A stretch of 64,000 nucleotides of DNA, taken from assembly GCF_028641065.1 (NCBI RefSeq), contig NC_073383.1, positions 20,336,001 to 20,400,000 on the forward strand, given 5' to 3'. Each line of letters begins with the position of its first letter. Within the stretch, counting starts at the first letter, position 1. Under the pieces are notes generated by a model. The model had not been told where the DNA came from. It saw only the letters and a program-made list of their open reading frames with translations, and made no database searches. Positions 11,799 to 53,800 of the stretch are shown here, piece after piece. This DNA is from Leucoraja erinacea. Its lineage: Eukaryota. The translations under genes and the position numbers were made by a program.

Positions 11799-14700
11799 GT
11801 ATCTTTTACCTTTGGTGTGGGAAGGATCTGCAGATGTTGGGTTAAACCGAAGATATACACAAAATGCTGGAGTAACTCGGCGGGTCCGGCAACTGGTGTC
11901 TGATGCTGCCTGCCTGACCTGCTGAGTTACTCCACTCCAGCATTTTGTGTATCCACCGCTTACCTTTAACTTGCACTTTGTAACCCCGCTTTTTTAAAAC
12001 AAAATATTTTGCATTTGATGTTTTTGTTCTTTTGAATTCTTTATTGATGCTTTGAATCTGTCAGCACCGTTTTGCTCTGTGGGTGGTGATCTGCTCACAC
12101 TCTCTGTCCCCTGTGCTCCACTCGCTCGGATCACCAAATAGTCCGAGTGATGTACTTACGAAAAGTTTCCGACTTTCTCGAGTTTACTGCCGACTTTTGC
12201 AAGATGGGTAAGTTCTTCTGTTCGGACACACAAGAAACTGTAGGTGCTGGAATCTTGAGCAAAGACTGAAGAAGGGTCCCGGCTCGAAACGTCACTTGTC
12301 TACTCCCTCCATAGATGCTGTTTGACCCGCTAAGTCCCACCAGCACCTTTGTGTTTTTCTCAAGCTCTTCGCTTCGTCTGCAACTCTCCTACTTTAGAAA
12401 CCAGAGTTCGTTGCTCCCTCTGCGATCATTCCCATTGCATTTCTCAGGCGTTGCCACGTAAGATGATGAAAACATGCTTATTGTTGTGTACTAAACAGAA
12501 ACTTCTAATTAAATAATCACCAGAGTCTCCAAAGAATAGATAACGAAATCAGAATGGTGGGAGCCTGAACTAAAATCAGAAAGAACTAAGCAGGAATGGG
12601 GCAAGAGCTGGCAGATGATGGGTGAATCCATGTGGAATGGTTGAATTGCAGATGTGTAAGGTGGGGGAGAGTACGGTGGTAATAATCAAGATGGGAGGTG
12701 ATAAGTAGATAAGACAAAATTGTGCCATTTGTGAATTCTGATAAGAAAGGAAAGTGGAGAGGGAAATGTAGAAACCGGATTGGGGGGTGCTGAGCGGGTG
12801 GAGGGGTTTCCACCATCTCTCTACATTTCATTTGCGCAATTTCTGAAGTCATGGTTTTAGCATTTTATTTTTCTGTGCTTCTACACCAGGTGGCACTCTT
12901 GCCTCCTTTAGAATTTCTACAACTATTGCAGGAGCTTCTATCATACCGGCTTCCCAGCAATTGGGAATTCTTATCACCTGCCTACTTTACTACTATATTT
13001 ACATTTTAATTCTTTTTTTAGCCTACATGATTACAGTTCCATTTTCTGCTATTGGTTCCTGTTGTAAAATCAATGGTTGCGACCTTTATAGCCATTGCTG
13101 ATGACTGAATCCTTTTGATAAATTGCCTCATTTATCATTTCAGACCTTGTTTGGCTAGGAATGATTCATACAATTTGAAATAAATTAGTTGCTTCCGATG
13201 ACAAAAAATATATAGAACTAGACTAAGTGGGACCCATTGGGTCCCAGCTTCACACGGGAGGGCTGGTCCCCCAACGGAATATTCCACCTCTGCACCAATT
13301 CCAATATTGCTGGCCGGGGGGGTGGGGCTTTCTGGAGCGCTAGTATGTGTGTTGTGGGTCAAAGTGACTGGTTTCCAGAGGGCTAGTATGGACATTGTAG
13401 GCTGAATGGATTATTGGGCTGGCACATCAGTCACTCTGGCCGGGCAGCTCAGTCACTCTGGCCGGGCAGCTCAGTCACTCACTTTGTTGTGCGCTGAAGG
13501 GACTGGTTTCCAGAGGACTAGTATGGACATTGTGGACCGAATGGATTTTTGGACTTGCAGTTCAGTAAGTCATGGCTGGTGGGCTGGCACTTCAGTCACT
13601 TACAGCTGGTGGGCTGGCATTTCACTTACTCGTGGCTGGTGGGCTGGCAGCCCAGTCACTCACAGCTGGTGGTGGCAGTTCACTCAGTCACCCGTCCTCC
13701 CTTCACCCCCCACTCTGCTCCATGCCATTCCCCTCCCCCACACGAATTCAGTCCATCTCCCCTCAATCTCTCCCCCATGCACTCTTAGTGGCTCTCCGAC
13801 AGCGCAGCCATTCCTGCCTATTAGGTTACTATTGTGATGAAGAGCACGCAGGCATGGCAAGTGGAAAAACGATGTATTAAAGTTTAAAATGTGAATGACT
13901 TAAAATATAACAACAATTTAAATGTTAAAGATGAGATTTATTAAGTTATTTTTTGTTGTGTCTCTTGCTGTGTTCTGCTGCTCACTGCCTCTTGATAACA
14001 CTTTGCTTTTGATATTAAAAAAAAAAGATAATTTTAATATAGAGAGATTAAGCGGTCAAATTTTAACAAAGAAAATCTGAGAATTTACCTCAAAAGTCAT
14101 CACGGAGTGTAGGCCGCAAGTCCAACCTCACAGCACTCCATGCCAATTTCACANNNNNNNNNNNNNNNNNNNNNNNNNNNNNNNNNNNNNNNNNNNNNNN
14201 NNNNNNNNNNNNNNNNNNNNNNNNNNNNNNNNNNNNNNNNNNNNNNNNNNNNNNNNNNNNNNNNNNNNNNNNNNNNNNNNNNNNNNNNNNNNNNNNNNNN
14301 NNNNNNNNNNNNNNNNNNNNNNNACACACACACAGACAGACACTCATACACAGAGACACAGTCAAACACTCACACACATACACAGTCACTCACACATACA
14401 CACTCATCCACAGACACTTACACAGACACAGCAACACATACATACGCACACACAGACAGACGACACGCACACACACTTTAGAAGCAATAGAGATACTATC
14501 TGCAAGCATTTTAGAACCAATAGAGACACTTTTCAAGCATTTTAGAACCAATAGACATTTTTTCGCAAGCATTTTAGAACCAATAGATTTTTTTGCAAGC
14601 ATTTTATAACCAATAGACACTTTTGGCAAGCATTTTACAACCAATAGTGACACTTTTGGCAAGCATTGTAGAACCAATAGAGACACTTTTTGCAAGCATT

Positions 14701-17700
14701 GTAGAACCAATAGAGACACTTTTTGCAAGCATTTTAGAACCAATATACACACTTTTTGCAAGCATTTTAGAACCAAGAGACATTTTTGGCAAGCATTTTA
14801 GAACCAATAGACATTTTTGGCAAGCATTTTAGAACCAATAGACATTTTTGTGCAAGCATTTTAGAACCAATAGAGACTTTTTGCAAGCATTTTAGAACCA
14901 ATAGAGACACTTTTTGTAAGCATTTTAGAACCAAAAAAGACACATTCTGCAAGCATTGTAGAACCAAAAGAGACACTTTTTGCAAACATTTTAGAACCAA
15001 AAAAGATACATTCTGCAAGCATTGTAGAACCAAAAGAGACACTTTTTGCAAACATTTTAGAACCAATAGACACTTTTTGCAAGCATTATACAACCAATAG
15101 ACATTTTTTTGCAAGCATTTTACAACCAATAGACATTTTTTTGCAAGCATTTTACAACCAAAAAAGACACATTCTGCAAGCATTGTAGAACCAATAGACA
15201 CTTTTTGCAAGCATTTTAGAGCCAATAGACACTTTTTGCAAACATTATAGAACCAATAGACACTTTTTGCAAGCATTTTAGAACCACTAAGGGCACTCAC
15301 ATTTGAGTAGGCATGTGTTCAGTGTTATTCACAGCTCAGAGAAACGTGACCCTCTGCCTTCCTCCATCTTGAAGAGACTGCGAGGCACACCACTTCTGGG
15401 TTTATAGTCCCTCCCCCTCCCACCAGCAGGAGCAGCAGAGAGAATGGCAAATCTTTTAAAAACATTAATATCTCTCTGATTTTTCATCAATGGGAAAAAT
15501 CCTCCGGTCCCGTAAGGCGGAGGGGGGCTCTGAGCGAGGTGGCCAAAAATGACGGCCGTAGGTGGCGGCGTTATGTCAGAAATTGCGCCACAGTGTGCCA
15601 AAAGCGGTCAAGATCAGAGTTGTATTAATATATAGATTATCAGAGTAAAAGGATGTACCTTTAGAATGAAAAGAGGAGGAATTTCTTTAGCCAGGGGGTG
15701 AATAACAACTTGGATAAACATTTGATATCCAAGGATCTCAATTTTTATTCTACATGGGGAAAAACATTCTGCCTTCATTTTGCACAGTGGTCAAATGCTT
15801 CATTTTCTCTGTAAAACCATTTTCACTTTTAGATGTTGCTACTCTGATGTATTGAAATGTATATCTTTAATCAGAAATATTTTGTTTTCCTTACAGTCGT
15901 GAAGACAATGAAGGTCATCCTAAGTGGTTTCTGCTTGGTGTGGGGCAAGTAATAAAAGGATTAGACATTGGTATGGCTGATATGTGTGAAGGAGAGAAAA
16001 GAAAATTAATTATACCACCTTCACTGGCATATGGAATAATTGGCAAAGGTAATATTTGCAATGAAAGTAGCTAATTGGTGGCCCTGTTTATTTTTCAATA
16101 TTACTACTGCTATGTGGAGATTAATTTAGTCTAGTATGTGTTACCTGGAAGATCTTGCCATTTAAGATTGAGGATCATCAAACTGTGACAGATCATGTTC
16201 GGTATTGGCATGGATTTAAGGAAAGAATGCATGTTTTAATTTGTGTTGCATCACAAGGCATGAACAATATTTTAAAATTAATTCGAGGAATTATCTTTGA
16301 ACACCCGACTATAAAACAATTGTCTTTTGCACCGTCACTGCAAGGATGCATGGTTATCTGTTACAACCTTTCGTGCATCTTTATTTACAGAATGTTGGCA
16401 TTGTTTTTGCATTGGTTTATTGTATAATCATTTCTAACAGTGCTTATTTTCTTTTTGCATGTGATACTTATTTATGTGACTATGTGTCGAATTATCTGGC
16501 AATGTCTCACTTCTGACTTTTAACCTTTTGTACAGTTTTCCAGAAGAAGTTTATCCAACTACAAATCCAGTGATATGTAAGAGTATTCATGCATGCTGCA
16601 AAAGATGACCCTCTTATCTTCTTAGAGTAGAATGCATGTATTTGTTTCAATATGGTATGTACACTCTTAATTGATTGAGTTACTAACTACTAATGTGAAT
16701 GATAAACTTTTGACCAAGTAAGCATTTGGTGAAGAATTTCCACCAGGGTTGCATTGTTCAGGAAAAAGATGACAGAAAATAAAAGCTTGCCTGTATTATG
16801 AAAGTACCAGGAACAGATTTTGTTTTAAAAAAAAAAAAAGCTTAAACTCCTAGATAATATATGGGCACTTCCTGACTTGTGTAAGGGTTATGTTCCATGA
16901 ACCCTTACACAGTACAGATTTTAGGTAAGTCGGAATCACCGTCCCCATCCACTGAACGAAATAACTAGCTGAATGTGTTAACTGGCTCAGCGCATCTGAC
17001 TGAATCCGGGGAACTCCCTGCAGCGTGCAGCCTTCTGCGTAAGCACTGCTGCCATTATCTGCTTGAGTTGGGGCACTTGGTGCTGAGCACGGCCTTGTGA
17101 GTAAACACCTCTGCCATTGCTGGTATGTTTCCGATTGAAGACTTGAGTATGGTAATCGTTTGGTGTTGTGGAAATGCAAACTACCTTGATTGCACTAGGG
17201 ACTGAGTACAACATGGTTTACGTAAGTGCAAGTTTATGTTAATCACCTAATGTTTAAGCCGGGGAGTATCTAGTTACAGAAGGATTAGTGGGTGCTCAGA
17301 TTATCCAAAGTAAAAATAATACAGTAGTTGGAGGGTGGATCTGGAATAAGCACGAGCAAGTTTCGAAACAACTGGGTGTTGCGCTAATAAGGTTTTAACA
17401 TTTTAGAATAATAACTTATAGGAAAGAAGGTAGTTGTGAGGAGGTTTGCAGGTGGAGATTATTAAACTTGCCCTTCGTACACTGGGCAATGAATGTCTGG
17501 GCGTCATTTGCAAAGTGGGATTCCAGTACACCTTCTGGATGAGCACAATGTTTCTCCCTCCATTTGGAAGATCCTGTGGTATAATGCTCTTCTACACCAT
17601 TGACCTTGTTATGGATGTCTGGAATCTGAGCCACCACAGATTCTCCATAGAATCTAAAATTGAAACTAAAAAAGGACCAGGCAAAACAATCGTGGGAAAT

Positions 17701-32816: not shown

Positions 32817-33118
32817 TTATCTGACTCTTTTGTGCCACAGATCAAAGCAGGGCACTACATGCAGTCTCACATATTTCTGTCCATTGAATGAGCACTCGAG
32901 GCATCCGTACACTGTCTCTCTTCGGGAACTTCCCATGCCACAAAGAACGCAGGGTCCTTTAGCAATATTGTTGTTGAGAAGGTTGACTCGCGTGTGGGCG
33001 TTATCCCGAAGGTAGTTGGTGGAAATATCTGTCATACTCGTAGCCTTCTCGTAATAGTCGGCGACCAAATCCTCCAAATAAAGATCAGAATTCCTGATGC
33101 CATCCAACACTTTCTCAT
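32817..33118 (-). CDS. PJVK: PJVK last coding exon (302 nt to stop)
   Basis: AACAG|, [14 protein letters not shown]...[14 protein letters not shown]. Confidence 0.95.
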
Positions 33119-36100: not shown

Positions 36101-39100
36101 TCAGTTCTGCTTTGCAACTGGAGAAGCCAAAACATAAGAGCCAAGATGATGAAAGATGCCAGTGTGATTACAGAGTGTATTTGTACCAACTGTGATCTCA
36201 TCATGGGAATTTCAGTAATATGAATTATTCCGCATTTGTAAGCAAAGACCATAATTGTGAGTAAATGCATAGCAGTTCATCCAAAAACTACAGATCTTCA
36301 TTGTGCGAGTAGTTTTAAAGGGAAACAATGAATAATATTGAAATGGTGGAAATTGTGTAAATTGGTTTTCAGTGCAAAGTAGAACATTTGATGCTAAATC
36401 TGGAATAATAAAGTGTAAAGTGCGAGGTGATAAGTTTAGTTTAGAGATACAGCATGGAAACAGGCTCTTTGGCCCAACGAGCTGTCGCCGACCAATGATC
36501 CCCCGTGCACCAGTTCTATCCTACACTCTAGGGACAATTGTTTTACAGAAACCAATCAACCTACAAACCTGCACATCTTTGGAGTGTGGGAGGAAACTGG
36601 AGCACCGGGAGAAAACCAACAAGGTCACAAGGAGAACGTACAAACTCTGTACAGACTGCACCTGTAGTCAGGATTGAACCCGGGTCTATGGTACTGTAAG
36701 ACTGCAACTCTACCGCTGCGCCACCGTGCTGTTCAATGTGGCAATTCACTTATCCTATTTCCATTATTGAGCACATTTATAACATAATTGCATCATGGCT
36801 TTGTGCGTGGGAAATCGTGTCTCAAATCTGGTATCTATCGTTTTTTGAAGAGGTTGCCAAGAGGGATTGATAAGGGAAGGGCTGTGGACATTATCTGTGT
36901 GGAATTTAGCAATGCTTTTGACAAGGTCCCGCATGGTAGGTTCATCTGGAAGGTTAGATCACATGAAATCTAAAGTGAGCTAGCCAATTAGTTTCAAAGG
37001 AAGGAGTCAAAGGGCAGTTGTAAATGGTTGTAGTTCGGATTGAAGGCCTCTGACCAGGGGTCTGTTGTTGTTTGTCTGTTGATGGGGTGCAATATAGGAC
37101 GCAGACATCACATGCTGAATCTAAACAATATTGTAGGGAAATTGCATTAATGCAACAACTTTGCAAACCCCTTGAGTTACTCCAGCACTTTGTATTGTTC
37201 TTTTAATACTCAAGCTGCTGGAGAAACTCAACAGGTCAGGCATCATTTGTGAGGGAAATGGACAGGTGACGTTTCAGGTCTGAAGGAGAGTCCTGACCCA
37301 AAACGTTGTCTGTCCATTTCCCTCCACAGGTGCTGCCTGACCCACTGAGTTCCTCTAGCACTTTGTTTATATTTAAGATTGCAGCTTCTTATTACATATT
37401 CTATGTAATATAATACACCATCAGTAGGTGTGGGATGCCATGGGACTGCAATGTGATAAATTAATTATGTGTTTATTCTATTTAGACCTGAATTATACTT
37501 TTAAATTGGTGTAATATATTAAAATGGCTCTCCAGTATTGGAGGGAGATCTCACCTGATCTGAACGAGCTACCATAAAAGAAGTCCGACAGACATCTCCG
37601 CAATTTCCACACTGAAAATCGGTTCATGAATCCACCCAATTGGTCTGTTAATTGTTCCTTCTCAAACCCACCTTTTGATTCGGATGTTACGCACAATTCT
37701 AAATGAAAAAGAAGCAGACGCAGATTTGAACAGTTGGGCAGCATTTTTTAGATTAAATTTAATCCTGCTTTAGGAGTCAAAGTCATACAGCATGGAAACA
37801 AGCTCATTGGCCCAACTCGCCCATGCCGATCAAAAATGTCTGTCTGAGCATGTCCCATTTGCCAGTATTTGGCCCATATCCCTTTAAAACCTTTCTTACT
37901 CGTGTACCTGTCCAAATATATTTTAAAATATAATTATTCCTGTCTTGACCACTTAGTTGGGCAACTTGTTCCATATACCCACAACCTGCTGTGTGAAAAA
38001 TCTTGCCCTTGGGGTACCCTTGAAATCTTTCACTCTCACCTTAAACTTATGCCCCTCAAGTTTTTTACTTCTCTAACCTGTGAAAAAGACTGTGACATCT
38101 ACCTTGTATACCCTCATGATTTTATAAACCTCTGTAAGGTCCTCTCTCAGTCTCCTTCATTCCATGGAAAATAGATCCAGCTTATCTAGTCTCTCCTTGT
38201 AACTCAAGCCCTCCCGTAAGGGCAATATCCTTGAGGGTCTTTTCTGCAGCTCCCTCTCTAGCTGAATCACATTCTTCCTATTGTATCGAAACCAGAACTG
38301 CCAGGGTCGTCTTAATTCTAGTCCCCCGGGCAAAGCAATGCACTGGGGCCGCTATACTTCCAGTTTCTTTATGCCGCATCAAATATGCCGTCATGCACTT
38401 GCGATGTTCTTCTCCGTTTTCATGTTCTACAATTGTTGGAGGAGGAGCCATCTTGGGGAACGGCTGCTAACCAGCAGCCGTCCGTTTAATTCACTTTTTT
38501 TGCAGTTTTAGTGAGTCCTGTGCTTTGCTTGTTGGAGAGTTAGACTTTTTAATGTGGCCTACCAGGGGTGGAGCGCCGTTTTTCTAGCCGCCCCTACCTC
38601 GGCTTCGGTGAGGCACTGGTTTTTTTCTCGGAGGCTGCCCCGTCGACCCGTGCCTGGGTCGCCGCGCTGGATCGACGCGCTGGAGTTCCGGTGAGCTGTG
38701 ACCGCCGAGTTCAACACCTCCGGGCTGCGGGTCTGCGGAGCGGAGCGGGCGGCGCTGACTTCAACATCGGGAGTCTGGGAGCTCCAAACCGGCGCGACCT
38801 TGTCGGCTTTGAAGCCGCGGTCGCCGCGTAAGGAATCGAAGCGCTGGTGGCTCCAGTGTGCAGGAACCGCCTCCGAGGCAATAGCGGAGGCCTCCGGGCC
38901 TGCTTTCTGAGAACTGGGGATGGGGGCTGGACGCCGCCTTCCCCAACATCGGTAACCATTGTGGGGGGATGAGCTGTATCCCCCGGCATGGCCTTGTAAC
39001 CTTAAGGATAATAAGGGGAGCCCCTTTCTCCGGTGAGGAACTTTTTTCACACAGAGTGCCCAGCCATCTGAGGGACTCTCTGCCACAGAGGGTAGGGGCA

Positions 39101-42100
39101 AGGCCACCCGGCCAGAACGGGGAGAACATGTGGCTCTTCCGTCAGAGGGGTATAGCGGAGGCCTCAGGTACGGGATACTGACTTTGGGAGATCAACTGGG
39201 ATCATATTGAATGGGTGCTGGACTCGAAGGGCTGTGGCCTACTCCCCACAGTGGTTTCTATGTGGGGTCTATGTCTTTTTTGTGTAAGTGAATATTTAAG
39301 TTTGTGTCCAAGATGGCTGTCGGAAGGGAGAGTGGACGCTGGCGCAGTTTAGCTGCCGCTGCTCTCTCTTCACATTGTGTTTTTGATTTTTTTTGTCTTT
39401 GGATCGAATTCTGTCTTTAATTTATGTATTGGTGATGTCTTTATTATTTATTTTATTCCGATTATATGGTTCTTTTTACTCTTGTTTCTGCAAGGTGTAC
39501 TTGAGACTTTTGAAAGGCGCCCTCAAATAAAATGTATTATATTATTATTACAATAACATTCTACCAGACATAGATTAGCATTGGGCCCCTGTGCTCGTGG
39601 GGCACCGAGCAACTGCCCAGCCTGCCCATGCATTAAGATGGCCCTGAGAACTGCACATAACACTCCAAGTGCAGCTCGCCAACATCTTGTACAGCTGCAA
39701 ATATAGTTTCACCATAAATAATTTGCACATTATTCCATGTCGCTCCAAATGGCAAATTTATCCACCCACCTGTTGAGAATTTATGTATTTCAAAAGGACA
39801 ACAATTTTGATCATTGATCCTTGAATAATTGTGCTTGAATGATACCTTACAGATACATGTGTCAGCTTGGACAGGCTTATTAATTCCCTTATATTTAAAT
39901 TAAATAAAGATTATTAATTGGTTACATGTTCATTGATAAATTCTGCAATGTTAAAAGTGGCGGCAATAATATTGTTGAAGGTTTACTTACCAAAATGGCC
40001 ATCCAAATGGACATATAGCTCAAAGACACTAAATGCAATTGTTGTGTGTGCCGGGATGACAAGGGCTTTGTCCCAACCCTTATGATTTTGTCCATTATCG
40101 ATCTGAAACTAGAGTGAGCACCATAAACAGAACAAACAGTCAGCTTTAATTGAAAAGCATACATTTTCAAATGCAGAAAGCCTGAAATAAAAACAGAAAA
40201 TCGTAGAAACAGTGAAATCGTAATTCGTAATTGAACTGAGCCAGCCTTTTCTATTTTTCTTTTTAATGTTTCCATTTCACTACAAGTAGGTATGTTGCAA
40301 AACTTACCTTCAACGGCGCTGCAGTTCTGTGGCTGCCCGTGTGAGCGACTTTGGCGCCTTTGAGAGGGGGCGGGTTTAAAACGCGATTTTCTCTAGGCTG
40401 TTGAAATCGATGTTGTTCAGCCTACTTAGTTGCTGACGGAAAATCGCTGCCAAATTTGTTCGCTGCAGGTATTTTTAAACTAAATTGGATTATTTAATTG
40501 TTAGAGTAGATTAAAAATCATTCTCTAAAGCCGCGAACCCCGACAACGGGACGGATCTCATGTAGGGGACAACGCAAGGTAGGTTGTTTATTTTTACATT
40601 AAAAAGGGCTTCTTAAGATCCCTTTATACAAAATTTTATGTTGCGAGTAGCTGACTTGGGGGCCCATTCAATCCCGCACTGTTTTTCATGCCATATGGGC
40701 TTCTAATTCACCGCAATGGCAGCGTTCCAAACCAGCGCGTCCCACTTGCAAGCTGATTTAAATGGCCATTAATTTACAGCAATTGAACACTAAATCCCTT
40801 CCATTTGGCCTATAAATTAAAATCATGTTTTATTGTGAATTCTTGTGTGAATGTTCTTTGGACACTTAGGCTATTTAAAAATGTTAATCTTTCCTTAAGA
40901 AATGGATAGATGTTTAGATCTAGTAATTGAATTTTGGAATTAGCTTCAATTGGGTAACCAGGTCATCCAAGTAAGATTGTTTAATATTTGTTTCAGAATG
41001 CTTCTATCTATAATAACTGAAAATGTATTTCAGTTCCCTTAATTTTTAATAAAGTTATGGCCATTTCACTGTCCTTCATCACAGCTTTTGTGTTGTCAAT
41101 GGAAAATCAATAGGGAGCAAGATGCTAATTTCCGAGAATGAAAATGGCCATACTTTTTTTAATACTGAAGATATGAAAGTGAATTAGATGTCAAATTAAA
41201 CTTCTTTTTATGCTTTATCTGATGGGATAAATTGCAGACTTGATTTTTTAAATCTCAAAATTTTGTATCATTGCTACTACAAGTAAGAATTTCATTGTTC
41301 CATTCCGCATAATAAAACGCTCTTGACTTTCAGAACAAAATTAAATTCCATCTTACAAAATTGCAAAGTTACAATTTAGACTTAATAATGTTTAAATCTG
41401 ATGTCTGACACTGAATGTGTCATCGGAGTGGGAGATTGCAACCTTCACGTGGTCCGCCCTGTTTCGACGAATGCAATCAACCTGGTGTGCACAATCGAAT
41501 AAGATCAAATAGAACAAGTTGTCCTACAACATTAGGCTTGCACGCAATACACAAGAAGAAGAAGCGTGTCGTCACTTGAGGTGGTTCAGTTTATCTTAAA
41601 TAAGTAATAACGAGATTGGAGGGATGGGCTTTGGTGTCACTTCCAATCTTGGACTTCTCTAATTATCCCAACACTCCCTAATCTCTTCATGAAGCTCCCT
41701 CCCAGCTACAATCCTCTCTCTATCAGCACATTAAAATAACTCCTGAAGGACATCCACCCTATCTATGTTATCATTCAAGCACAAATATGGTTGCCATCTT
41801 ACTATAAGCTTTAAAATACTAATACAATGATTTGTGTAGGAAATAACTGCAGATGCTGGTTTAAATCGAAGATAGACACAAAATGCTGGAGTATCTCAAA
41901 ACTCAATGCTGAAAGTCTAAAGAAGGGTCTCGACCCGAAACGTCTCGACCCGAAACGTCACCCATTCCTTCTCTCCACTGCCTGTCTCGCTGAGTTACTC
42001 CAGCATTTTGTGTCTATCTTCAATACAATAATTTGTGTTTGTTGAATGGGTTGTTGTTTCATCGTTGCCTGTGGATATGTGTAAACAAAGAAAATGTTAT

Positions 42101-45100
42101 GAGATTGGCCTACCACTTAAATTCCTGGCAAGTTTCCTTTCCATCAAAGTCAGCTCAACTGTTTTTGTCCCTAAGCATGGTAAAACACCCAACATGGAAC
42201 ATATTTTGAACTGTAACTGTTAATGTTATACAAACTTTATAGCAATCAAGCAACTGAATAAGGGCACAAAGTGCTGGGGTAACTCAGCAGGTCAGGAAGC
42301 ATCTCTGGAGAACATGGATAGCCAACCTTTTCTGTCAAAACCCCTCTTCAGACCCATATGCTCCAGAGATACTACCTGACTTGCTGAGTTACTCCAGCAC
42401 TTCATATCCTTTTATGTATTAACCAGCATCTGCACTTCTTTGTTTCAACTAAGCAACTGAATAATCCATGTGTAAAATACTGTAGTGGGGAATATTATAG
42501 AACAAAAATGTAAAGGTGGGACCAATGGGAGAAAACGTGAGTGATGGTGAAGGAAGGAGAGCAGTAGAATATCTAACATTTTGTGATTCTCTCAAATAAA
42601 TAGAGCTAGTTGACCCCAAAGTGTCGTGATGATGATGATATTTTATTGTCACTTGTACTTGGGTAGAGTGAAATTCTTTTTTTTGCAAACAAAATACACA
42701 AAGGCACTGACAAAGTTACAATAAGTAACTAAGTAGAATAATTAAACTTTGTAAATTACTTTGTAATTAAAGCACTTTAATCAAACCTTATTGAACTTTA
42801 TCTTGTACTACACATTATTCCCTTTATCCTTTATCCTGTATCTGTACTCTGTGGATGGATTGATTATAATCATGTACTAGACCAAGTGGGACCCGATGGG
42901 TCCCCGTCACACGGGAGGTCTGGTCCCCCAACGCAACCCGTTCCCCCAACGCAATATTGCACCACTCACCCATTCCCACAACACAACCCGTTCCCCCAAT
43001 GCAATATTCCACCACTCACCCATAGCTCCTCATCCTTTCTCTTTTTAAACCTTTAAAAAAATGCAAGCACTTGTTGCCATGACTTAAAATAAAATCCATT
43101 TCCACTTCCCCTGTCTCCCCCTCCTGTTCAGCCTCACTCTGCCAGGACTCAGTGTTCTATGATTGCAACATTGTTGCAAATGAGATCCCATTGTGACATC
43201 ATAGCTGTAACTGCCAGCAACTGCCAGAGCAGTTGAAGTTATTGGTCTTAAAGTGGTGTTTTGTAAAGCTAAAAATGTTAATAACTTGTAAAATATAACA
43301 CCAATCTGAATGAAACGTGTTGAAAACACACCACAAGACAATTGTGAGTAACGTGATACAAAAATGTTAGCGCTATCGGGTATCGTTTTGGCGTAATTTC
43401 AGGATCACACGTCCGCACATAGAAACAAACAAGATGAGAGTTTTAGTAATATACTAGACCAAGTGCAGACCCGTCCCCCAACGCACCCATTCCCTACCCA
43501 GAGCCCTCACGAGAGGCGGGGTCCTCCAACTCAAGCAGTTCCCGAACGTATGATTCCAGCCGTCCGCTTGCCTCCCTCAGTAGTGCTCTTTAAAACAAAA
43601 ATTCCAATTGCACTTGTCCTGCATGTTGCAATAGCAATTCGCCCGATGTTCCAGGCCGTTCTCGCCGGGTGATGGTGCTTCGGCGTCGGGAGAATCCTCT
43701 CAGCGGCTTGGGACACCTGGAACGGCCGCCTCCTTACTCGAGACCGCGGCTTCTGAAGCCAACAAGGCCGCGCCGCATGGAGCTCCACTACTGGCGATCT
43801 CGTCGCGAGATCTCAGGCTCCCGATGAAAAGTTCTGCGCCGCCGCCCGCAGGCTGGCCGCTCCGCAGATATTTTTACTCGGCGGACGTTTCAGCTTACCG
43901 GAGCTCCAGCTTACCGGAGCTCCGGGCAAGTCATCGCCCGCTCCTCAATAGCGCTCCAGCGCTGTGCCGCCGCTGAAGCCGAGGTTCTGGGTGGTCCCCT
44001 CAGGAAACGCCGCTCCAGGCCCGCTGGTAGGCCGCGAGGACGGGTCGACGGTGCAGCCCGGAGAAAAGCTGCCTCTCCGACCATGTAGGGACCCTGAAAG
44101 GTAGTTTCCCCCTTCCCCCCCACCCCCCACATAAAAAAGGCTAGAACTCCATAACAAAAACACTTTAACTAACTAAAAATTTAAAAAAGAGATGAAAAGA
44201 CGGACAGCTGCAGGCTGGGCATCCACACCATAAAGTACGGCGCCCCCTATCTTGCCAAAATCTTGTGAAAGTTGGCATTTTTAAAGCTTTAATTGCAAAT
44301 AACGTGTCAAATATTGGATGAAATCTTCACTGAGGAAGATCACTGTTAGCAGAGCCATTGTGACATCATCAGTTGAAGCTGGTGGTTTTAATTTCAAAGT
44401 CTTTTGACTTTTTTACACTTTTAATCAGTAATGTCGACAATAAGTTGAGAAATAAAGCATAAAATGTTCAGATAAGGTAGTCCCGGCCTCGACGGGAAAT
44501 ATGTCAATCGGAATATATAAAAATGTAATCGTTACCACGTAGTGTTTTTGCGAAGATGTAAAAACACCACATACACACATACAAGATCAGACTTTTAATA
44601 AGTATATGATATAGATAGTCTTTCCGCTGACTGGCCAGCATGAAACAAAAAGCTTTTCACCTGGGTACACGTTACAATAAACAAAACATATTTGAGACAT
44701 CACTCAAGCACAATATGAACAGTAACCATGCTACTAACTATGATGGAGCAGATAGTGGGACCTACCCTCATTGTTTTTCCCCTCATGCCGGCATGCACAG
44801 TGAGTGAGCATTGCCGGGTGGTGCGGATGCTCTCCATGACAACACAAAGTACAGCACGTTGCCTTTCTTTCAGCTGGCGAACAAGGCAATGCTCCACGTC
44901 AATTTTTCTGAGGCAAATTCAACACGTTAGTTTTTTTTAAAATGACGAAACCAGAGATCCAAATCGTTCATTTTTTCTATTGAGGTTAAGTTGTTCAGAT
45001 GATCATATCTGTAGTGTCTTTGAAAGATATGATTATTGAGTCAACATAGTTAAGCTCAAATGAATGGTCACGATTAAAACTCTTGAAGACTTAATGTTTG

Positions 45101-47654
45101 GATCATTTGAATTTGCTGTTTTTAATAATATTACTAGACCAAGTGGGGCCCAACAGAATATTCTACCACTCACCCGTTCCACCAACGCAACCCGGTTCCC
45201 CCATCGCAATATTCCACCACTCACCCATGGCTCCCAACTGCGCAGGCGCAGCTCATTTCACCTCATCCCCCACCCCATCCCCTCCTCTTCAACCTCCCTC
45301 TTCTTTCCCCTCCCCCACTCCCTCTCTCACCTCTCCCTCCCTCTCCTTTCCCCTACCCTCAGTCAGTCCCTCCCTTCCTCCATAACCCCTCTCCCCTCCC
45401 TACCCCCCTTGACGTCATTGTGAGGTGGAAGCTGCTGGGTTTTTTTTTAACTGAGTTTTTATGTAAATGAGATCCCATTGTGATGTCATTGTGTGGTGGA
45501 ACACTGCTGATGGGCAGTCTTTTTTTTAAACTGATTTTTTAAAATGAAAATGAGATCCCATCTCATGGGACCCTCTCGCTCCCCCATCTTGCAGAGACTG
45601 ACCTGGGCACTCAACACGTCCGGGTTTTATAGTCCCTCCGGAAAGGGCGTGGCCTTCAGGAGAGAGAATCTAAACTTTTTTAAACACTAATAAGTCTTTT
45701 ATTTTTCATCGATGGGAAAAATCTTCTTGTCCTGCTCAGCAGAGGGGGACTGAGTAAGATGGCCAAAAATCACAGCCGTAAATGGCAGCGAAAGTTTTTC
45801 TAAAATCAATATGCAGAACAACAGGAAGTGGTCAAGATCAGACTTTTAGTAATATAGATATAGAATATAGATATTAATTAGGTTTGGCATCAAGGAGAAA
45901 GTTCCATTCACTTTTTAGTATCAATGCAAATGTAATGTTTACGATGCACTAATTCTTCTTTGTTAATGTATCCATTCAATAATTATTTTATGGTGCTTTA
46001 ATAATGTTAAAAGTACCTTAAAAATATCACCATTAAATTAGATTGGAAAATGGCCAAAATACCTGTTGATGATCTCCCGGAGCAGTATTGGCACCTCAAC
46101 CTCGTGTTTTGTTACTATTCCAAATGAAGCTTTAATTGCCACTGAATATGATCCATTAATATTGAATCCAACGTCATTAATAACGTGATTGCCTAATTTC
46201 CCTCTGAGCGAAACATCTGACTTATCTTCATAATTGAGCAGCTGATATGAAGAGACACCTATTAAATAACAAACAGATGTTTAACTATCTTTGTTTTCTT
46301 TTTTGTGTGTTTTGAACATATTGTACATTTTTATCAGGATGTTTTAGATATGTTGCAATTTATTGATGCAACTTTGGTTGGGAAACCCTGCACAAGATCA
46401 CTGATTATTGCAATAAAATTAATCTCTAATTGTGATTATTATAAAAAGATAGAACTGAAGGAATAATAAACTGCAATTTTGTAACCATATATTAAACTCG
46501 AGTGACATGCAACTTGTAAAATGTCCTGCTGAGTTCTGATTTGAAATGTCATCTATCCATGTTCTCCAGAGATGCTGCCTGACCTGCTGATTTACTCCAG
46601 CACTTTGTGTCTATCTTCGGTATAAACCAACATCTGCAAAGGTGAGCAGATGGATTTCAGCAGCAGATGAACAGGGTAAGGCAGAGTCATGTGATGTAAT
46701 GGAGATCGTGGTCTTGGGAATGACACAGTTAAGTGACCCACAGCTTGTCTCGAGTCAAATAAGATGCAACAGTTACTGGTCCACATTTGGGTATTCTATG
46801 GAGATGGATGGAGAAGATGAATTTGTTATGGAGATTAAAGCCAGTGGTCTTTCCAGTATCTGTTGTTGGTCTTTCCAGTATCTGCTTGAGTTCAATTTCC
46901 ACACATCCAACATCGTATCTGGGGGAATACACAACTTCAAAAATGGTGGTGGGGCTAAAGAGATGGTGCTGTGGGAGAACTGAATATCATCAGTGTTCTT
47001 TCGAAAACTTGGACTCCTTTCAAATGAATAGGCTTCCAAATAAATTGACATTTACTAAATGGGAAGGAGGATTGCCAAATGACTTTCATGGATATTTTGT
47101 GTCTTTTATATTTGACCTTGTGTATTGAATCATGATTGGTAATAGGATGCTAAGGGAGGTTAAGCAGTTTAATCATTTCTTTGTAATAACACAGTTTCTT
47201 ACAGCAAACAGCAGAATTTAGACAGAAGGAAAATAATACACAGAGTGCATGAGTAACTCAGCAGATCATGCAATATCCCTGGAAAACATAGATAGGTGGC
47301 GTTTCAGGATGGGGACCGTTCTTCTGAAGAAGTTACCTATCCATGTTCTCCAGAGATGCTGCGTGACCCACTGAGTTACTAGTGTCTTTTATTTTTGTAA
47401 ACCTGCATCTGCAGGTCCTTGTTTCTATAAAATAAATACATACCAGCTGACACCTCCTTTTCCCCGACAAGAATGTCCTTCAGCGTGAATGGCGTGGAGT
47501 GGTATTTCTTCTTTTTCCATGGAAAGGATTTTGTCCGTTTTGTGACAAGACTGAGTGGCTGATATCTGTCGGCCTCGCTCAGATCAGGAACAGGTTTCAG
47601 TCTGCCTGTATCCCCAATCTGTTTCACAAAATTCTTAGTGGCTGCAGTAAACAT
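32817..47654 (-). CDS. PJVK: Pejvakin (DFNB59, gasdermin family), 370 aa; exons 47654-47444, 46258-46063, 44907-44766, 40108-39991, 37698-37555, 33118-32817
   Basis: [19 protein letters not shown]...[16 protein letters not shown]...[17 protein letters not shown]...[14 protein letters not shown]...[12 protein letters not shown]...[14 protein letters not shown]...[15 protein letters not shown]; 1113-nt open spliced frame, all GT-AG; lies between FKBP7 and PRKRA. Confidence 0.96.
33310..35125 (+). mobile_element. CR1-clade LINE fragment (RT to 3' tail)
   Basis: [56 protein letters not shown]; tail GGCCGAATGGCCTACTCCTGCACCT(ATTGTCT)n; stops and deletions. Confidence 0.9.
34240..34440 (-). mobile_element. 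Second short retroposon family with a decayed HDV-like ribozyme and (GAA)n tail, nested in a CR1 fragment
   Basis: GGCTC A TGTTGTCA ACC TCCCCGT GGT GAGCCCT GT CAA CTGAC-CTCA-GTCAG G TGAA CGACAACA; tail CGCAAGAAGAAG. Confidence 0.7.
36433..36730 (-). mobile_element. tRNA-derived SINE
   Basis: Reverse strand GCACGGTGGCGCAGCGGTAGAG ... GGTTCAATCC ... (CTAAA)n. Confidence 0.8.
37555..37698 (-). CDS. PJVK: PJVK coding exon 5 (144 nt)
   Basis: TTTAG|, [17 protein letters not shown]...GSSFRS, donor CAG|GTGAGA. Confidence 0.88.
38302..39646. mobile_element. Non-autonomous hAT element with a nested GC-rich retroelement
   Basis: TIRs CAGGGTCGTCTTAA / TTAAGATGGCCCTG; perfect 8-bp TSD AGAACTGC 38294-38301 / 39647-39654. 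Confidence 0.85.
39991..40108 (-). CDS. PJVK: PJVK coding exon 4 (118 nt)
   Basis: CTCTAG|, [39 protein letters not shown], donor G|GTAAGT. Confidence 0.93.
40289..41275. mobile_element. Non-autonomous DNA transposon, superfamily unresolved
   Basis: Flanked by direct repeat ACTACAAGTA (40279-40288, 41276-41285); imperfect inverted ends GGTATGTTGCAAAA / TTTTGTATCATTGC. Confidence 0.7.
41425..41478 (+). ncRNA. Minimal HDV-like ribozyme fold (54 nt, one P1 mismatch)
   Basis: P1 GGAGTGG/CCGCCCT, P2 GATTGCA/TGCAATC, P3 ACC/GGT, L3 TTCACGT, mini-P4 T-TTCG-A, J4/2 CGAA. Confidence 0.8.
41425..41565 (+). mobile_element. Short retroposon with a 5' minimal HDV-like ribozyme and (GAA)n tail
   Basis: TSD GTGTCATC / GTGTCGTC; ribozyme fold 41425-41478; tail AAGAAGAAGAAG; second copy at 52635-52769. 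Confidence 0.85.
42877..44615 (-). mobile_element. Tandem non-autonomous Helitrons inserted at an A|T site without TSD
   Basis: CTAG termini at 42877 (with hairpin) and 43454; TC terminus 44615; flanks rejoin as CATGTA|TAGTCTTT, matching the uninterrupted repeat at about 3862-3880. Confidence 0.85.
44766..44907 (-). CDS. PJVK: PJVK coding exon 3 (142 nt)
   Basis: CTCAG|, [11 protein letters not shown]...GKTMR, donor AGG|GTAGGT. Confidence 0.95.
45134..45858 (-). mobile_element. Non-autonomous Helitron
   Basis: Same termini (ACTAGACCAAGTGGG... and CAAGATCAGACTTTTAGTAATATAGAT); its 5' part is homologous to 15350-15636. Confidence 0.8.
46063..46258 (-). CDS. PJVK: PJVK coding exon 2 (196 nt)
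   Basis: AATAG|, [13 protein letters not shown]...LLREIIN, donor AG|GTATTT. Confidence 0.95.
47444..47654 (-). CDS. PJVK: PJVK first coding exon (211 nt)
   Basis: ATG 47654, donor G|GTATGT. Confidence 0.95.
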
Positions 47655-48920: not shown

Positions 48921-49761
48921 GAAACAGTTGATTCCAGGAAAAGTATTGATGTTACCAGCTCTCCACTTAGTTAAACCGTTGTATTGTATTGTATTGTATT
49001 GAACATAGAGTGATTCCAGAATGCACAAATTGACTTTTATAAATTGTAAGGGTCTAATTTACAGATTAGAAGAGACAGTTAATGAAAATGTCATTCAACC
49101 TTTCACGCCTAGATGCTGTTCTTGGAGAGTACTCCAATTATTCCATCCCACGCCATACCCCAAAAACAAAAATCTAAAGGAGGAAAGGGACGTCAAATAA
49201 GATAATATCTGGGTTACTCTCTGGGCCACAGACCAATGAATGTACAATTTGGAGTATATACATGTATGTCTGGAGAGGTGGTGCAGGAGGGAGATTCTTG
49301 GGACATGGAAACCACTTCTGAAGGAGGTGGAATCTGTATGGACTTGATGGATTGCATCTTAAAGGACCTGGGATATGTTCCTGAGGAGATTCAGTTTGGG
49401 GGGAGAGGGGGAATTAATTTGGCAGATAGTTCGGTAAAGGAAGATAGGAGAAAAGGGACTTGCAAGGGGATTGGAGGAGGCCTTGTCCAGTTTATGGGAA
49501 TGGTAGAGAGGGGAGGAGGGAGAGAAGGCACCTTGCTTGGGAGAGTCTGGCGGGGAAAGAGGTGCTTTGCTTGGGAGAGTGTGATGGGAAAAGGGGCGAC
49601 TTGCTTTGGCGGGAAGGCATTGCCTGGGGATGCGGCTGTTGTGACAAGCGGCCGTCATGACGTGTGGCCATGGTGACGTGCTCCATGGCCCTACTGGAAC
49701 GTCATCAACAGCCATTGTGACATATTTAATGACTGCCGTGACGGCATCGTGAAGCTGGCCC

Positions 49762-50495
49762 TCACCACGTCACCGTGGCAGCCACGTCACCACAGCGGCA
49801 CCTCTGCCACGGCCACCAAGGTAGCCAGGTCACTATGGCCGCACGTCACCATGACCTCAGGTCACCACGGCACGGCATCACGTCACCACGGCATCACGTC
49901 ACCACGGCGGCACGGCACCACGGCATCACGTCACCGCGGCCTCACGTCACCACGGCGGCCTCACGTCACCACGGCCTCACGTCACTACGGCCTCACGTCA
50001 CTACGGCCTCACGTCACCACGGCGGCCTCACGGCGGCCTCACGTCACCACGGCCTCACGTCACCACGGCATCACGTCACGGCATCACGTCACCACGGCGG
50101 CCTCACGTCACCACGTCACCACGGCATCACGTCACCACGGCACCACGTCACCACAGCCTCACGTCACCATGGCATCACGTCACCACGGCATCACGTCACC
50201 ACGGCACCACGTCACCACGGCATCACGTCACCACGGCATCACGTCACCACGGCATCACGTCACCACGGCATCACGTCACCACGGCATCACGTCACCACGG
50301 CATCACGTCACCACGGCATCACGTCACCACGGCATCACGTCACCACGGCATCACGTCACCATAGCCTCACGTCACCATGGCCTTACGTCACCATGGCACA
50401 CGTCACCACGGCGGCCTCACGTCACTGGCCTCACGTCACCATGGCCTTACGTCACCATGGCACACGTCACCACGGCAGCTTCACGTCACCATGGC
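49762..50495. repeat. Minisatellite, 16-nt unit CACGTCACCACGGCAT, about 40 units
   Basis: Direct reading; homogeneous core at about 50170-50360. Confidence 0.97.
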
Positions 50496-50499
50496 TGTA

Positions 50500-50800
50500 A
50501 GCTTCCCATCAGCCCCCGCGCAGCCACCCTCAGTCGGAGCTCGGCGCATGCGCCGCCGCGGTGGCCCCTCCCCGCTCCTTCCTTTCCGCCGGAAGCAGAC
50601 GGACTGGGCCGAGGCCGAGGGCGCCGGCGAGGGGATCGCTCCAAACCCGGGGACACAGAGCACCTTTTCCGCGCGGCTACAATCCTACCGCTGGGAAGCA
50701 GCATGTCTGAGGAGAGGTTTACAGCCGCGTCCAAAAGGAGCTCTGGATGCACCGGGTAAGTGGCTGCGCTCATCCGGGAGCGAGTGTTCCGCGCTGCTTC
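50500..50800. promoter_or_regulatory. CpG-island promoter of PRKRA (divergent from PJVK)
   Basis: NRF1-type palindrome CGGCGCATGCGCCG 50542-50555, ETS/GABP-type CCGGAAG 50589-50595, GC-rich, directly upstream of ATG 50703. Confidence 0.7.
50703..50755 (+). CDS. PRKRA: PRKRA exon 1 (53 nt)
   Basis: [24 protein letters not shown], donor GG|GTAAGT; phase matches exon 2. Confidence 0.8.
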
Positions 50801-53800
50801 CCCTACAGCCATGCACGTTGTACCCCCCCCCCCCCCCCCCCATAGCAGCCATGCATCGTTGTACCCCCCCCCCCCCTGCCCAAGTATGGTTGTACCTCCT
50901 GCAGCCATGCATCATTGTACCCCTCCCCTGCAGCCCCCGTTGTACCCCCCCAGCGATACATCGTTGTACCCCCCCCCCTGCAGCCATGTATCGTTGTACC
51001 CCCGCTGCAGCCATGCATCGTTGTGCACCCCCCCTGCAGCCATGCATCGTTGTACCCCCCCTTAGAGCGATACATCGTTGTACCCTCCCTGCAGCCATGC
51101 ATCGTTGCACCCCCCCTGCAGCCATGCATCGTTTGCACCCCCCTGCAGCCATGCATCGTTGTGCCCCCCACTGCAGCCATTGCATTGTTGTACCCCCCTG
51201 CCCCCCCCCCCCGCAGCCATGCATCGTTGTGCCCCCACTGCAGCCATGCATTGTTGTACCCCCCCCTGCAGCCATGCATCGTTGTACCCCCCCCCCAGCC
51301 CCATTGTACCCCCCCATAGAGCGATGCATCGTTGTACCCCCCCCTGCAGCCATGCATCATTGTATCCCCCCATAGAGCGATGCATCATTGTACCCCCCCA
51401 TAGAGCGATGCATCATTGTACCACTCCCCCATAGAGCGATGCATCATTGTACCCCCTCCACTGCAGCCATGCATTGTACCCCCCCCCCCAGAGCGATGCG
51501 TTGTTGTCCCCCCCCATAGAGCGATGCATCATTGTACCCCCCCCCCCCCCCCATAGAGCGATGCATCATTGTACCACTCCCCCCATAGAGCGATGTGCCA
51601 CCTCCGCTGGAACGATACTTCGTTGTACCACCTCCCCTGCAGCTATGCATTGCTGTACCACCCCCTGGAGCGATGCATTGCTACCCGTGTGCCCCACACT
51701 ACCTCCCCTGGAGCGATGCATTGCTGCCTGTGTGCCAACACTGACTTCAATAAAATTATGACTTCAATTTGACACCTTGTTAATGTTTGTTTATCTTGTA
51801 CAGTAACTGCATTTTTGCAATTTGGTGTTTAATGTTTTAATATCTAGTCTTCATCTCTTGTGCTGGTAGTTTTAATTCTGTTTCACGGGATGAGTTGTCT
51901 GAATGTTACTACGTCAATCCTGGCTTTGCATGCTCCGAAAGCAAATTTTAATATTTACTAGCTTTAATATTGATTTATTGTTTCGTCCACCTTTCACATT
52001 GTTTAAAACATTCCCTTCTCAGTTTGGAACAGGTGATTGTAGCAAATCCTGGGAAGACCCCGATCAGCTTGCTGCAAGAATACTGCACAAAGAATGGCAA
52101 AACGCCTCAGTATGAGCTTGTGAATTCCGAGGGTCAAGCTCACCTGCCCAGCTTCACCTTCAGAGCAACAGTGGGAGAAGTGAGCTGCAAAGGTCAGTAA
52201 CTGTTGCTTTACTTCATGCTGCTAATTCTCCTTGTATGTGAAAAGAAAATTGACCAAAATCAGTCATTACTTGTGTGCATCTTTCTGATTTTGAAAAAAA
52301 AAGACACACAATGCTGTTTAGTTTATTATTGTGTCATGTGTTGAGTTACAGGGAAAACTTTTTGTCGCGTACTATCTAGTCAGCGAAAAGACTATACGTG
52401 ATTACAATCAAGCTGTCCACAGTACAGGTAAAGGGAATAGCATTTAGTCCAAGATAAAAGTCTGATTAAAGATAGTTTGTGGGTCTTCAATGAAGTAAAT
52501 GGGAGGTCAGGACCACTCTCCAGTTGGTGAGAGGACGGTTCAGTTGCCTGATAACAACTGTGAAGAATCTGGAGTAACTCAGTGGGACAGGCAGCATCTC
52601 TGGAGAATGTAGGTGACATTTCAGGTGGGGATCCTTCTTCTTTCATGTGGCGTGCACAGCCTAAAGTTGTTGGACAACTTGTTCTATTTGATCTTCCGTT
52701 TGTGCACGTTGAGTTGATTGCATTAGTCGAAACAGGGCGGACCACGTGAAGGTTGCAATCTCCCACCCCGTGGGGACCCGTCAGTCACCTATCGATGTTC
52801 GCCAAGGATGCTGCCTGGCCTACTGAGTTTCTCCAGCTTTCAATCTCTTTTTGTAAACTAGCATCTGCAGTCCTTATATCTGCATATTTGTGATTGAGTT
52901 GCTATAGTGTTCAAACATTGTCCAGTGTTTTCATAGGCACTGAACTAGAACTCAACAGAATCCTATTTGTGTGCTCTACCTTGCAATATAATATCCTTGT
53001 GCAATGGGAAAGTTTAACATGGGAGAAGTATGAGGTGATGCATATTGATAGTAAGTAAGAGGAAAGATGATAGCTTTCTGTTTAACAGCTTCTCCATTCA
53101 CTTGACAGAAGTTTGGAATGCCTGAACAATGGAGGAAGCTCCAAATCTGCCTACAGCTTTGTATAGAAACATAGAAATTAGGTGCAGGAGTAGGCCATTC
53201 GGCCCTTCGAGCCTGCACCGCCATTCAATATGATCATGGCTGATCATCCAACTCAGTATCCCGTACCTGCCTTCTCTCCATACCCCCTGATCCCCTTAGC
53301 CACAAGGGCCACATCTAACTCCCTCTTAAATATAGCCAATGAACTGACCTCAACTACCCTCTGTGGCAGAGAGTTCCAGAGATTCACCACTCTCTGCGTG
53401 AAAAAGGTTCTTCTCATCTCGGTTTTAAAGGATTTCCCCTTTATCCTTAAGCTGTGACCCCTTGTCCTGGACTTCCCTAACATCGGGAACAATCTTCCTG
53501 CATCTAGTCTGTCCAACCCCTTAAGAATTTTGTAAGTTTCTATAAGATCCCCTCTCAATCTTCTAAATTCTAGAGAGTATAAACCAAGTCTATCCAGTCT
53601 TTCTTCATAAGACGTCCTGACATCCCAGGAATCAGTCTGGTGAACCGTCTCTGCACTCCCTCTATGGCAATAATGTCCTTCCTCAGATTTGGAGACCAAA
53701 ACTGTACGCAATACTCCAGGTGTGGTCTCACCAAGACCCTGTACAACTGCAGTAGAACCTCTCTGCTCCTATACTCAAATCCTTTTGCAATGAAAGCTAA

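Follow-up and report, generated by a model that had tools for sequence, protein, structure and literature searches.

The last ~55 residues of pejvakin (PJVK) very probably represent the C-terminal cysteine-rich domain (CRD) of a piggyBat/PGBD4-type transposase, acquired in a single event in the vertebrate stem. Whether made with profiles, pairwise, with a language model or on predicted structures, the comparisons led to CRDs of the piggyBac superfamily; no host zinc finger matched along the whole tail. When direct capture is taken together with an indirect route through a host gene, we hold a transposase origin of these residues with high confidence. An earlier sequence-only reading of this DNA had proposed that PJVK is a gasdermin-transposase fusion; the comparisons support this proposal, with the restriction that transposase ancestry can be traced no further than the final ~55-60 residues, and the protein is therefore better described as a gasdermin-plus-CRD fusion without the catalytic core. 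Consistent with this description, the DDD core (PF13843) was not found in PJVK.

The window analysed is a stretch of 64,000 nt of the cartilaginous fish Leucoraja erinacea (NC_073383.1, positions 20,336,001 to 20,400,000), and it carries a six-exon PJVK gene on its minus strand. The six coding exons were located by tblastn with shark pejvakin and their AG/GT boundaries were read from the flanking sequence, giving a coding length of 211+196+142+118+144+302 = 1113 nt, or 370 amino acids plus the stop:

47444..47654, minus strand: coding exon 1, with the ATG at 47654 (tblastn and flanks; also a PF04598 match)
46063..46258, minus strand: coding exon 2, gasdermin N-domain (tblastn and flanks)
44766..44907, minus strand: coding exon 3, gasdermin N-domain (tblastn and flanks)
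39991..40108, minus strand: coding exon 4, gasdermin N-domain (tblastn and flanks)
37555..37698, minus strand: fifth coding exon (144 nt, phase 1-1), covering the linker and the final part of the gasdermin N-domain
32817..33118, minus strand: last coding exon, 302 nt with the stop, AG acceptor, phase 1, a segment of about 42 residues followed by the CRD
32997..33118, minus strand: acidic segment preceding the CRD in the last exon, a low-confidence predicted helix, unlike transposase linkers and unlike the GSDME exons of this genome
32832..32996, minus strand: predicted piggyBat-type cross-brace zinc finger (CRD) with eight candidate ligands
His 32996, Cys 32951, Cys 32942, Cys 32903, Cys 32894, His 32861, Cys 32849 and His 32834, minus strand: candidate ligands of the CRD, each given by the first base of its codon, corresponding to H294, C309, C312, C325, C328, H339, C343 and H348 in mammalian numbering

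Among the best 120 of 256 matches, the last exon shared 93% identity with sequences named as pejvakins of sharks and rays, and nearly all of these 120 belonged to the gasdermin family or were pejvakin by name. The junction between exons 5 and 6 is consistent with annotated orthologues, and PF04598 and the CRD-like tail occur within one ORF from hagfish to mammals, so that host domain and tail are conserved in frame. The exons adjoining PJVK encode FKBP/EF-hand and dsRNA-binding domains, and we take the neighbouring genes in the window to be PLEKHA3, FKBP7 and PRKRA. Elsewhere in the window, tandem low-complexity repeat tracts (14600-15320 and 49740-51770) give long spurious frames on both strands.

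The tail follows the pattern H-x14-CxxC-x12-CxxC-x10-H-x3-C-x4-H and is encoded by the minus-strand frame 33122-32817, in which the stop lies four residues past the last His; ending a few residues past the eighth zinc ligand is also what transposases do. The letters of the motif noticed earlier at 32820..32960 were exact in this frame and the entire motif lies within a single terminal exon, as had been stated, but the domain starts further upstream, because the His at 32996-32994, the first of the eight ligands, had been missed. The full eight-ligand pattern was present in 146 of 148 PJVK proteins, the two exceptions being cut-short sequences, and with these two left out all eight ligand positions were invariant in an alignment of 104 sequences (A4). 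In the same alignment the acidic segment at 32997-33118 (minus strand) carries near-invariant Y13, D16, D20, Y21, Y22, S27, M28, T29, D30 and S32. The distribution in cyclostomes, which had been suggested as a check, showed the tail in both lamprey and hagfish, and no non-PJVK cluster with the tail was found.

Pfam gave a divided answer. The zf-Tnp_2 family (PF13842), a profile of 60 positions, aligned from 11 to 59 with 18 of 18 PJVK tails at a best E of 0.0038, with scores of 15.5-17.7 bits that remain below the cut-off of 24, while C1_2 reached 16.8-18.6 bits against a cut-off of 26 and matched 15 of 18 over positions 13-42 of 48 (best E 0.00099). In the Pfam scan of two full-length PJVK proteins (P0002 and P0139) C1_2 appears and zf-Tnp_2 does not. 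The lack of a profile hit or a better match to a non-transposon finger had been named beforehand as observations that would speak against a piggyBac origin, and Pfam goes half of that way, with zf-Tnp_2 below its cut-off and C1_2 about equal. Pfam alone being indecisive, transposases were gathered by their catalytic motif in order to build a profile of the CRD itself. From 80 metagenome loci, 59 with an open frame of at least 120 residues to the stop were combined with 17 stored proteins, yielding 73 distinct C-termini, of which 56 fitted H-CC-CC-[C/H]-C-H, a selection pattern composed after PJVK had been seen; the other 17, being truncated, frameshifted or variant, were left out.

An HMM of these 56 CRDs scored the PJVK tail at 32.0 bits in this fish, 31.8 in a teleost, 30.4 in a mammal, 30.0 in hagfish and 26.0 in lamprey. 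When the eight ligands of these five tails were held and the remaining residues shuffled, the mean was 4.9-6.3 bits and the maximum 20.7-24.4, and for each tail none of 2000 shuffles reached the real score, so that the resemblance exceeds what the spacing of Cys and His alone would produce; hydrophobic positions required by the fold were not preserved in these shuffles. True CRDs scored 21.8-63.4 bits when their own family was left out (median 48), only two of the 56 falling below 32, which places PJVK at the low end of the range. A PJVK-free profile of 36 CRDs (A3) gave 147 of 149 PJVK sequences 21.3-32.5 bits, and in HHalign the PJVK alignment A1 matched A3 with a probability of 97.5% and an E of 8e-12. 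Run against 177,635 PDB sequences, A3 gave piggyBat 47.3 bits and the best non-transposase 18.8, and in a CRD-profile scan of the window together with 43 loci the PJVK exon scored 29.6 bits and the next best sequence 10.4. The signal between CRD and PJVK profiles is one-directional. Of 1.84 billion proteins, a profile of the PJVK tail retrieved 14 at E<=0.001, every one of them PJVK and none a transposase, and against the PDB at E<=10 it did not find piggyBat; its best match there was ribosomal L37e at 19.3 bits, a chance match scoring above the 17.7 bits that the tail profile gives to the transposase L076. The L37e match, obtained with the single exon as well as with the tail profile against the PDB, covers the first CxxC only and was rejected, and a second match of the tail in its own genome (L126, E 0.35) was discarded as a chance frame opposite retroelement-like ORFs with no Pfam match.

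In pairwise comparison L076 was the nearest of the 56 CRDs for all four tails tested, none of 300 shuffles scoring as high, and its alignment with PJVK continues ungapped across the first His. At this locus (733-2869) the transposon is intact: its inverted repeats are flanked by TTAA, and the transposase ORF is open. In an exploratory tree of 55 columns, with long branches and an unsettled bootstrap, PJVK was joined with L076 and a second transposase, L058, at 98/95. At E<=0.1 Pfam zf-Tnp_2 misses the CRDs of these two true transposases, the nearest to PJVK, and hence the family under-detects the subfamily to which they belong. No piggyBac was found in the viral contigs searched.

Support that is independent of the alignments built here came from the ESM Atlas, in which 14 of 30 and 15 of 30 feature matches fell into the zf-Tnp_2 set. 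Among the structure neighbours of the hagfish tail, eight of nine non-PJVK rows were piggyBac by name or family (PGBD4-like clusters, TM 0.70-0.74), the ninth was unnamed and no C1 row appeared; none of these rows reaches the level at which the tool assigns a family name, and the query model had a mean pLDDT of 0.59. Two AlphaFold2 models were poor (pLDDT 49 and 51). A cluster of insect lola BTB isoforms, 32% of whose members carry zf-Tnp_2, was also a structure neighbour of the PJVK tail, and on these predicted structures it appears to be a parallel capture of the same finger.

The earlier assignment to the piggyBac superfamily is supported, and within it the tail agrees with the CRDs of piggyBat, PGBD2-4 and PiggyMac (H-CC-CC-[C/H]-C-H, C1-like topology), a cross-brace with a small beta-sheet and a C-terminal helix, and not with the PHD-like CRD of T. 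ni. The CRD of piggyBat (Myotis; PDB 9C0F) combines one Cys3His and one Cys2His2 site, and the same fold is predicted for PGBD2-4 (PMC11707139). It has the ligand order of PJVK (H,C,C,C,C,H,C,H) with the same spacings x12, x3 and x4, and carries R-S-E-T-R-Y before the second CxxC where PJVK has R/K-R-E-T-V-Y. At the position of the L(H/C) block where a Cys had been expected, PJVK carries His; this does not set it apart, since piggyBat itself has His there (L-H-x3-C-F-x2-Y-H). His is the sixth ligand in four of the 56 CRDs (five were counted, one of which, L080, is a mis-parse). The piggyBat residues R543 and E545, reported to contact DNA bases (PMC11707139), align with PJVK K/R318 and E/D320, which are present in 141 of 144 and 144 of 144 PJVK sequences. 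The non-ligand signature is complete in PJVK: T at -4 and an aromatic residue at -2 before the second CxxC (each in 35 of the 56 CRDs), L before ligand 6 (52 of 56), and the ending C-F-x2-aromatic-H, in which 50 of the 56 CRDs have F after C7 and 51 have an aromatic residue next to the final His. Like the CRDs of the piggyBat/PGBD2/3/4 type the PJVK tail occupies the extreme C-terminus; in contrast to them, PJVK has a gasdermin N-domain in front instead of a transposase core, fewer basic residues (median net charge +3, against +7 in the 56 CRDs) and a C4-to-ligand-6 loop that is six residues longer than theirs. This loop measures 10 residues in PJVK and four in 49 of 56 CRDs, the longest among them being eight, so that PJVK falls outside a short-loop definition.

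PiggyMac-type CRDs of Paramecium use an upstream His as a ligand, pair ligands 1,4,5,8 and 2,3,6,7, and have a C1-like fold unlike the PHD-like CRD of T. ni (PMC8086355). PiggyMac resembles PJVK in its first-ligand His at a variable distance upstream and its terminal His in last place (PMC8086355), whereas it differs in having Cys at ligand 6 (His-Cys2-His and Cys4) and in retaining the transposase core. Its CRD is domesticated and is described as binding a peptide and not DNA (Guerineau et al., PMC8086355). The T. ni piggyBac CRD belongs to the same superfamily and shares with PJVK a cross-brace of two zincs, those of PJVK being predicted, but it has another ligand pattern and another fold and was not listed when A3 was run against the PDB.

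How the tail became attached is best followed by comparison with GSDME (DFNA5), which shares with PJVK the gasdermin N-domain exons, a phase 1-1 linker exon and a paralogous chromosome segment (PMC8742441). In this genome GSDME lies on contig C2, with its linker exon (locus L014, 9751-9569) of 183 nt, phase 1-1, similar at its start to the 144-nt exon 5 of PJVK. GSDME continues with repressor-domain exons, whereas PJVK has kept the first five coding exons and carries one finger-bearing terminal exon in place of the rest. A Gasdermin_C family search of this genome returned no match, although the GSDME exon that follows the linker did match Gasdermin_C when scanned directly (E 0.0009). The two genes also share neighbours, as a PH-exon paralogue and near-identical C1 exons, presumably chimerin-like, lie within a few Mb of both: C2 81.7-85.8 Mb (GSDME, chimerin-like C1 exon, PH paralogue) mirrors C7 20.3-22.7 Mb on the PJVK side. 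This pairing of segments agrees with the reported HOXA/HOXD-linked duplication of PJVK and GSDME (PMC8742441), a duplication that has been dated after the lancelet split (PMC10659411). Since lampreys and hagfishes alike have the tail, no cluster other than PJVK has it and the duplication followed the lancelet split, we place the capture in the vertebrate stem. After the duplication, a piggyBac element would have inserted in sense orientation behind the linker exon, and the transcript would have entered the 3' end of the transposase ORF through a cryptic acceptor and ended at the transposase stop; entry by read-through from a decayed next GSDME exon would fit as well. The 42 residues before the first His matched neither transposase linkers (HHalign 0.2%) nor the two GSDME exons (negative scores), and thus the fusion junction cannot be placed within them. 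For the same reasons they were rejected as the last helix of a transposase (HHalign 0.2%) and, given the negative scores just mentioned, as the linker of GSDME retaining part of a caspase site.

The published view that PJVK is a truncated GSDME, its tail being a diverged next GSDME exon or having arisen de novo, has in its favour that the gene has been read by intron phase as GSDME minus the last three exons (PMC10155998, PMC8742441), and the upstream 42 residues could be an exon remnant. However, the post-linker exon of GSDME matches Gasdermin_C and the last exon of PJVK does not, both GSDME exons receive negative scores from the profile of the 42-residue segment, and the CRD match would be left unexplained; we therefore give this explanation hardly any weight. 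A host C1/DC1-like or other treble-clef finger, whose piggyBac likeness would reflect a shared fold or convergence, is improbable for other reasons. It draws support from C1_2 scoring as high as zf-Tnp_2, from the topology that the piggyBat and PiggyMac CRDs share with C1 domains (PMC11707139; PMC8086355), and from the neglect of fold-required hydrophobic positions in our shuffles. On the other hand, the C1_2 match is partial as well as below its cut-off, the zf-Tnp_2 match being nearly full-length in all tails, and twelve C1 domains of this genome scored 0.2-17.2 bits on the CRD HMM, against 26-32 for PJVK. HHalign gave PJVK against C1 pieces 0.4%, and PJVK scored no better than shuffles on a C1 HMM, itself a weak one built from 20 mostly partial exons. 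Moreover, C1 domains have two Cys3His sites (PMC11707139) and end in Cys, while PJVK ends in CF-x2-aromatic-His.

Only slightly better placed, and still unlikely, is an indirect route, in which a finger of piggyBac stock had first been domesticated in some host gene and was passed on to PJVK through exon shuffling; fingers of this kind are present in BTB genes, lola among them. The lola cluster with zf-Tnp_2 among the structure neighbours fits such a route, as do the top feature matches, which are short stand-alone hypothetical proteins, the upstream 42 residues that are not transposase-like, and the 400 nt of PJVK 3' flank, in which no transposon end was seen. Against it, no donor host gene was found among the 1.84 billion representatives or in this genome, and the nearest CRD, that of L076, sits in an intact element. 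Direct capture from a transposase is thus preferred over these three alternatives.

To relate the CRD to deafness variants we used the numbering of four 352-residue mammalian pejvakins, and not the human sequence; these four agree with the human variant table at T54, R183, L224, H294, N303, C312, G324, V330 and C343, and F317 is found in one of the four. The published zinc motif of PJVK spans 305-331 (PMC12605547), and the missense or in-frame deafness variants reported for the last exon are H294D, N303del, G324W and C343S (PMC8775161). All four lie within the CRD, a weak observation because the CRD makes up more than half of the last exon, and H294D comes from one family. H294D and C343S affect predicted ligands 1 and 7, both outside the published motif. 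According to a review, C328 and C343 are needed for ROS-induced binding of LC3B (PMC8147788), and of the four positions given by the two ligand variants and the two LC3B-relevant cysteines (H294, C343, C328 and C343) three are at or beyond the annotated edge. By the PiggyMac pairing, the fold would contain two cross-braced zinc sites, H294/C325/C328/H348 and C309/C312/H339/C343, in which C328 and C343 would fall into different sites and hold one zinc each. Oxidation would then loosen the fold and switch LC3B binding, and earlier results with cysteine mutants may likewise reflect unfolding, since both residues would be zinc ligands of different sites. The eight-ligand reading offers a reason for the pathogenicity of H294D and C343S, widens the motif from 305-331 to 294-348, and predicts that changes of H339, H348, C309, C312 and C325 are harmful as well.

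PJVK has been localised to peroxisomes and stereocilia rootlets (PMC8775161) and is reported to be non-lytic (PMC8742441). Its CRD most likely would have ceased to read DNA and would serve, outside the nucleus, as a docking module folded around zinc. If direct capture is accepted, a redox zinc switch and a purely structural docking domain appear about equally plausible, each falling a little short of an even chance, while retained nucleic-acid binding is unlikely. Tentatively, these elements may be joined into one account, in which PJVK is a fusion predating the split of jawless and jawed vertebrates, the piggyBac finger replaced the repressor domain and became a two-zinc redox switch (or, with less likelihood, a nucleic-acid reader through its R-x-E), and DFNB59 missense variants of the last exon break a transposon-derived fold.

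CSB-PGBD3 and SETMAR are host-transposase fusion genes, and as in such genes the presumed transposase domain of PJVK forms, in frame, the terminal part of a host protein and is under strong constraint. A survey of tetrapods by Cosby et al., which relied on annotated Pfam domains, recovered 106 host-transposase fusion genes with KRAB as the commonest host domain (bioRxiv 10.1101/2020.05.07.082677), and PJVK is absent from its main text. PJVK differs from the fusions presented there in that a gasdermin would have gained the zinc finger alone, before cyclostomes and gnathostomes diverged. If the capture is correct, it would be a very old transposase capture that did not produce a transcription factor and that screens of domain annotation would pass over. 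Full-text searches of the open literature returned no statement of a transposon origin for the PJVK tail; a prior notice could still stand in domain databases, in papers under subscription or in Table S3 of Cosby et al. In the publications consulted, the tail is called a zinc finger of unassigned function in a review (PMC8775161) and is said to lack homology to other gasdermins (PMC13631336), and PJVK is either treated as a truncated gasdermin or absent (PMC10155998, PMC9355259, PMC10659411, PMC13475620, PMC13631336, PMC12631165, PMC12984700, PMC8742441, PMC5381638). With the assignment proposed here, the tail gains a template of known structure (9C0F) and a complete set of candidate ligands.

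The genomic searches also revealed an intact piggyBac frame of 558 codons (locus L001, 1-1677; contig C32, about 11.106-11.108 Mb), the only PF13842 match in this genome, with counterparts of 64-81% identity in a chimaera and six further cartilaginous fishes; this frame is a candidate domesticated PGBD gene of chondrichthyans. Finally, eight more matches to the gasdermin first exon (L004-L011) were identified on contig C27 at 1.16, 6.66-6.80 and 7.79-7.81 Mb, five of them within 140 kb, and these probably represent a tandem expansion of the GSDMA/B-like type.
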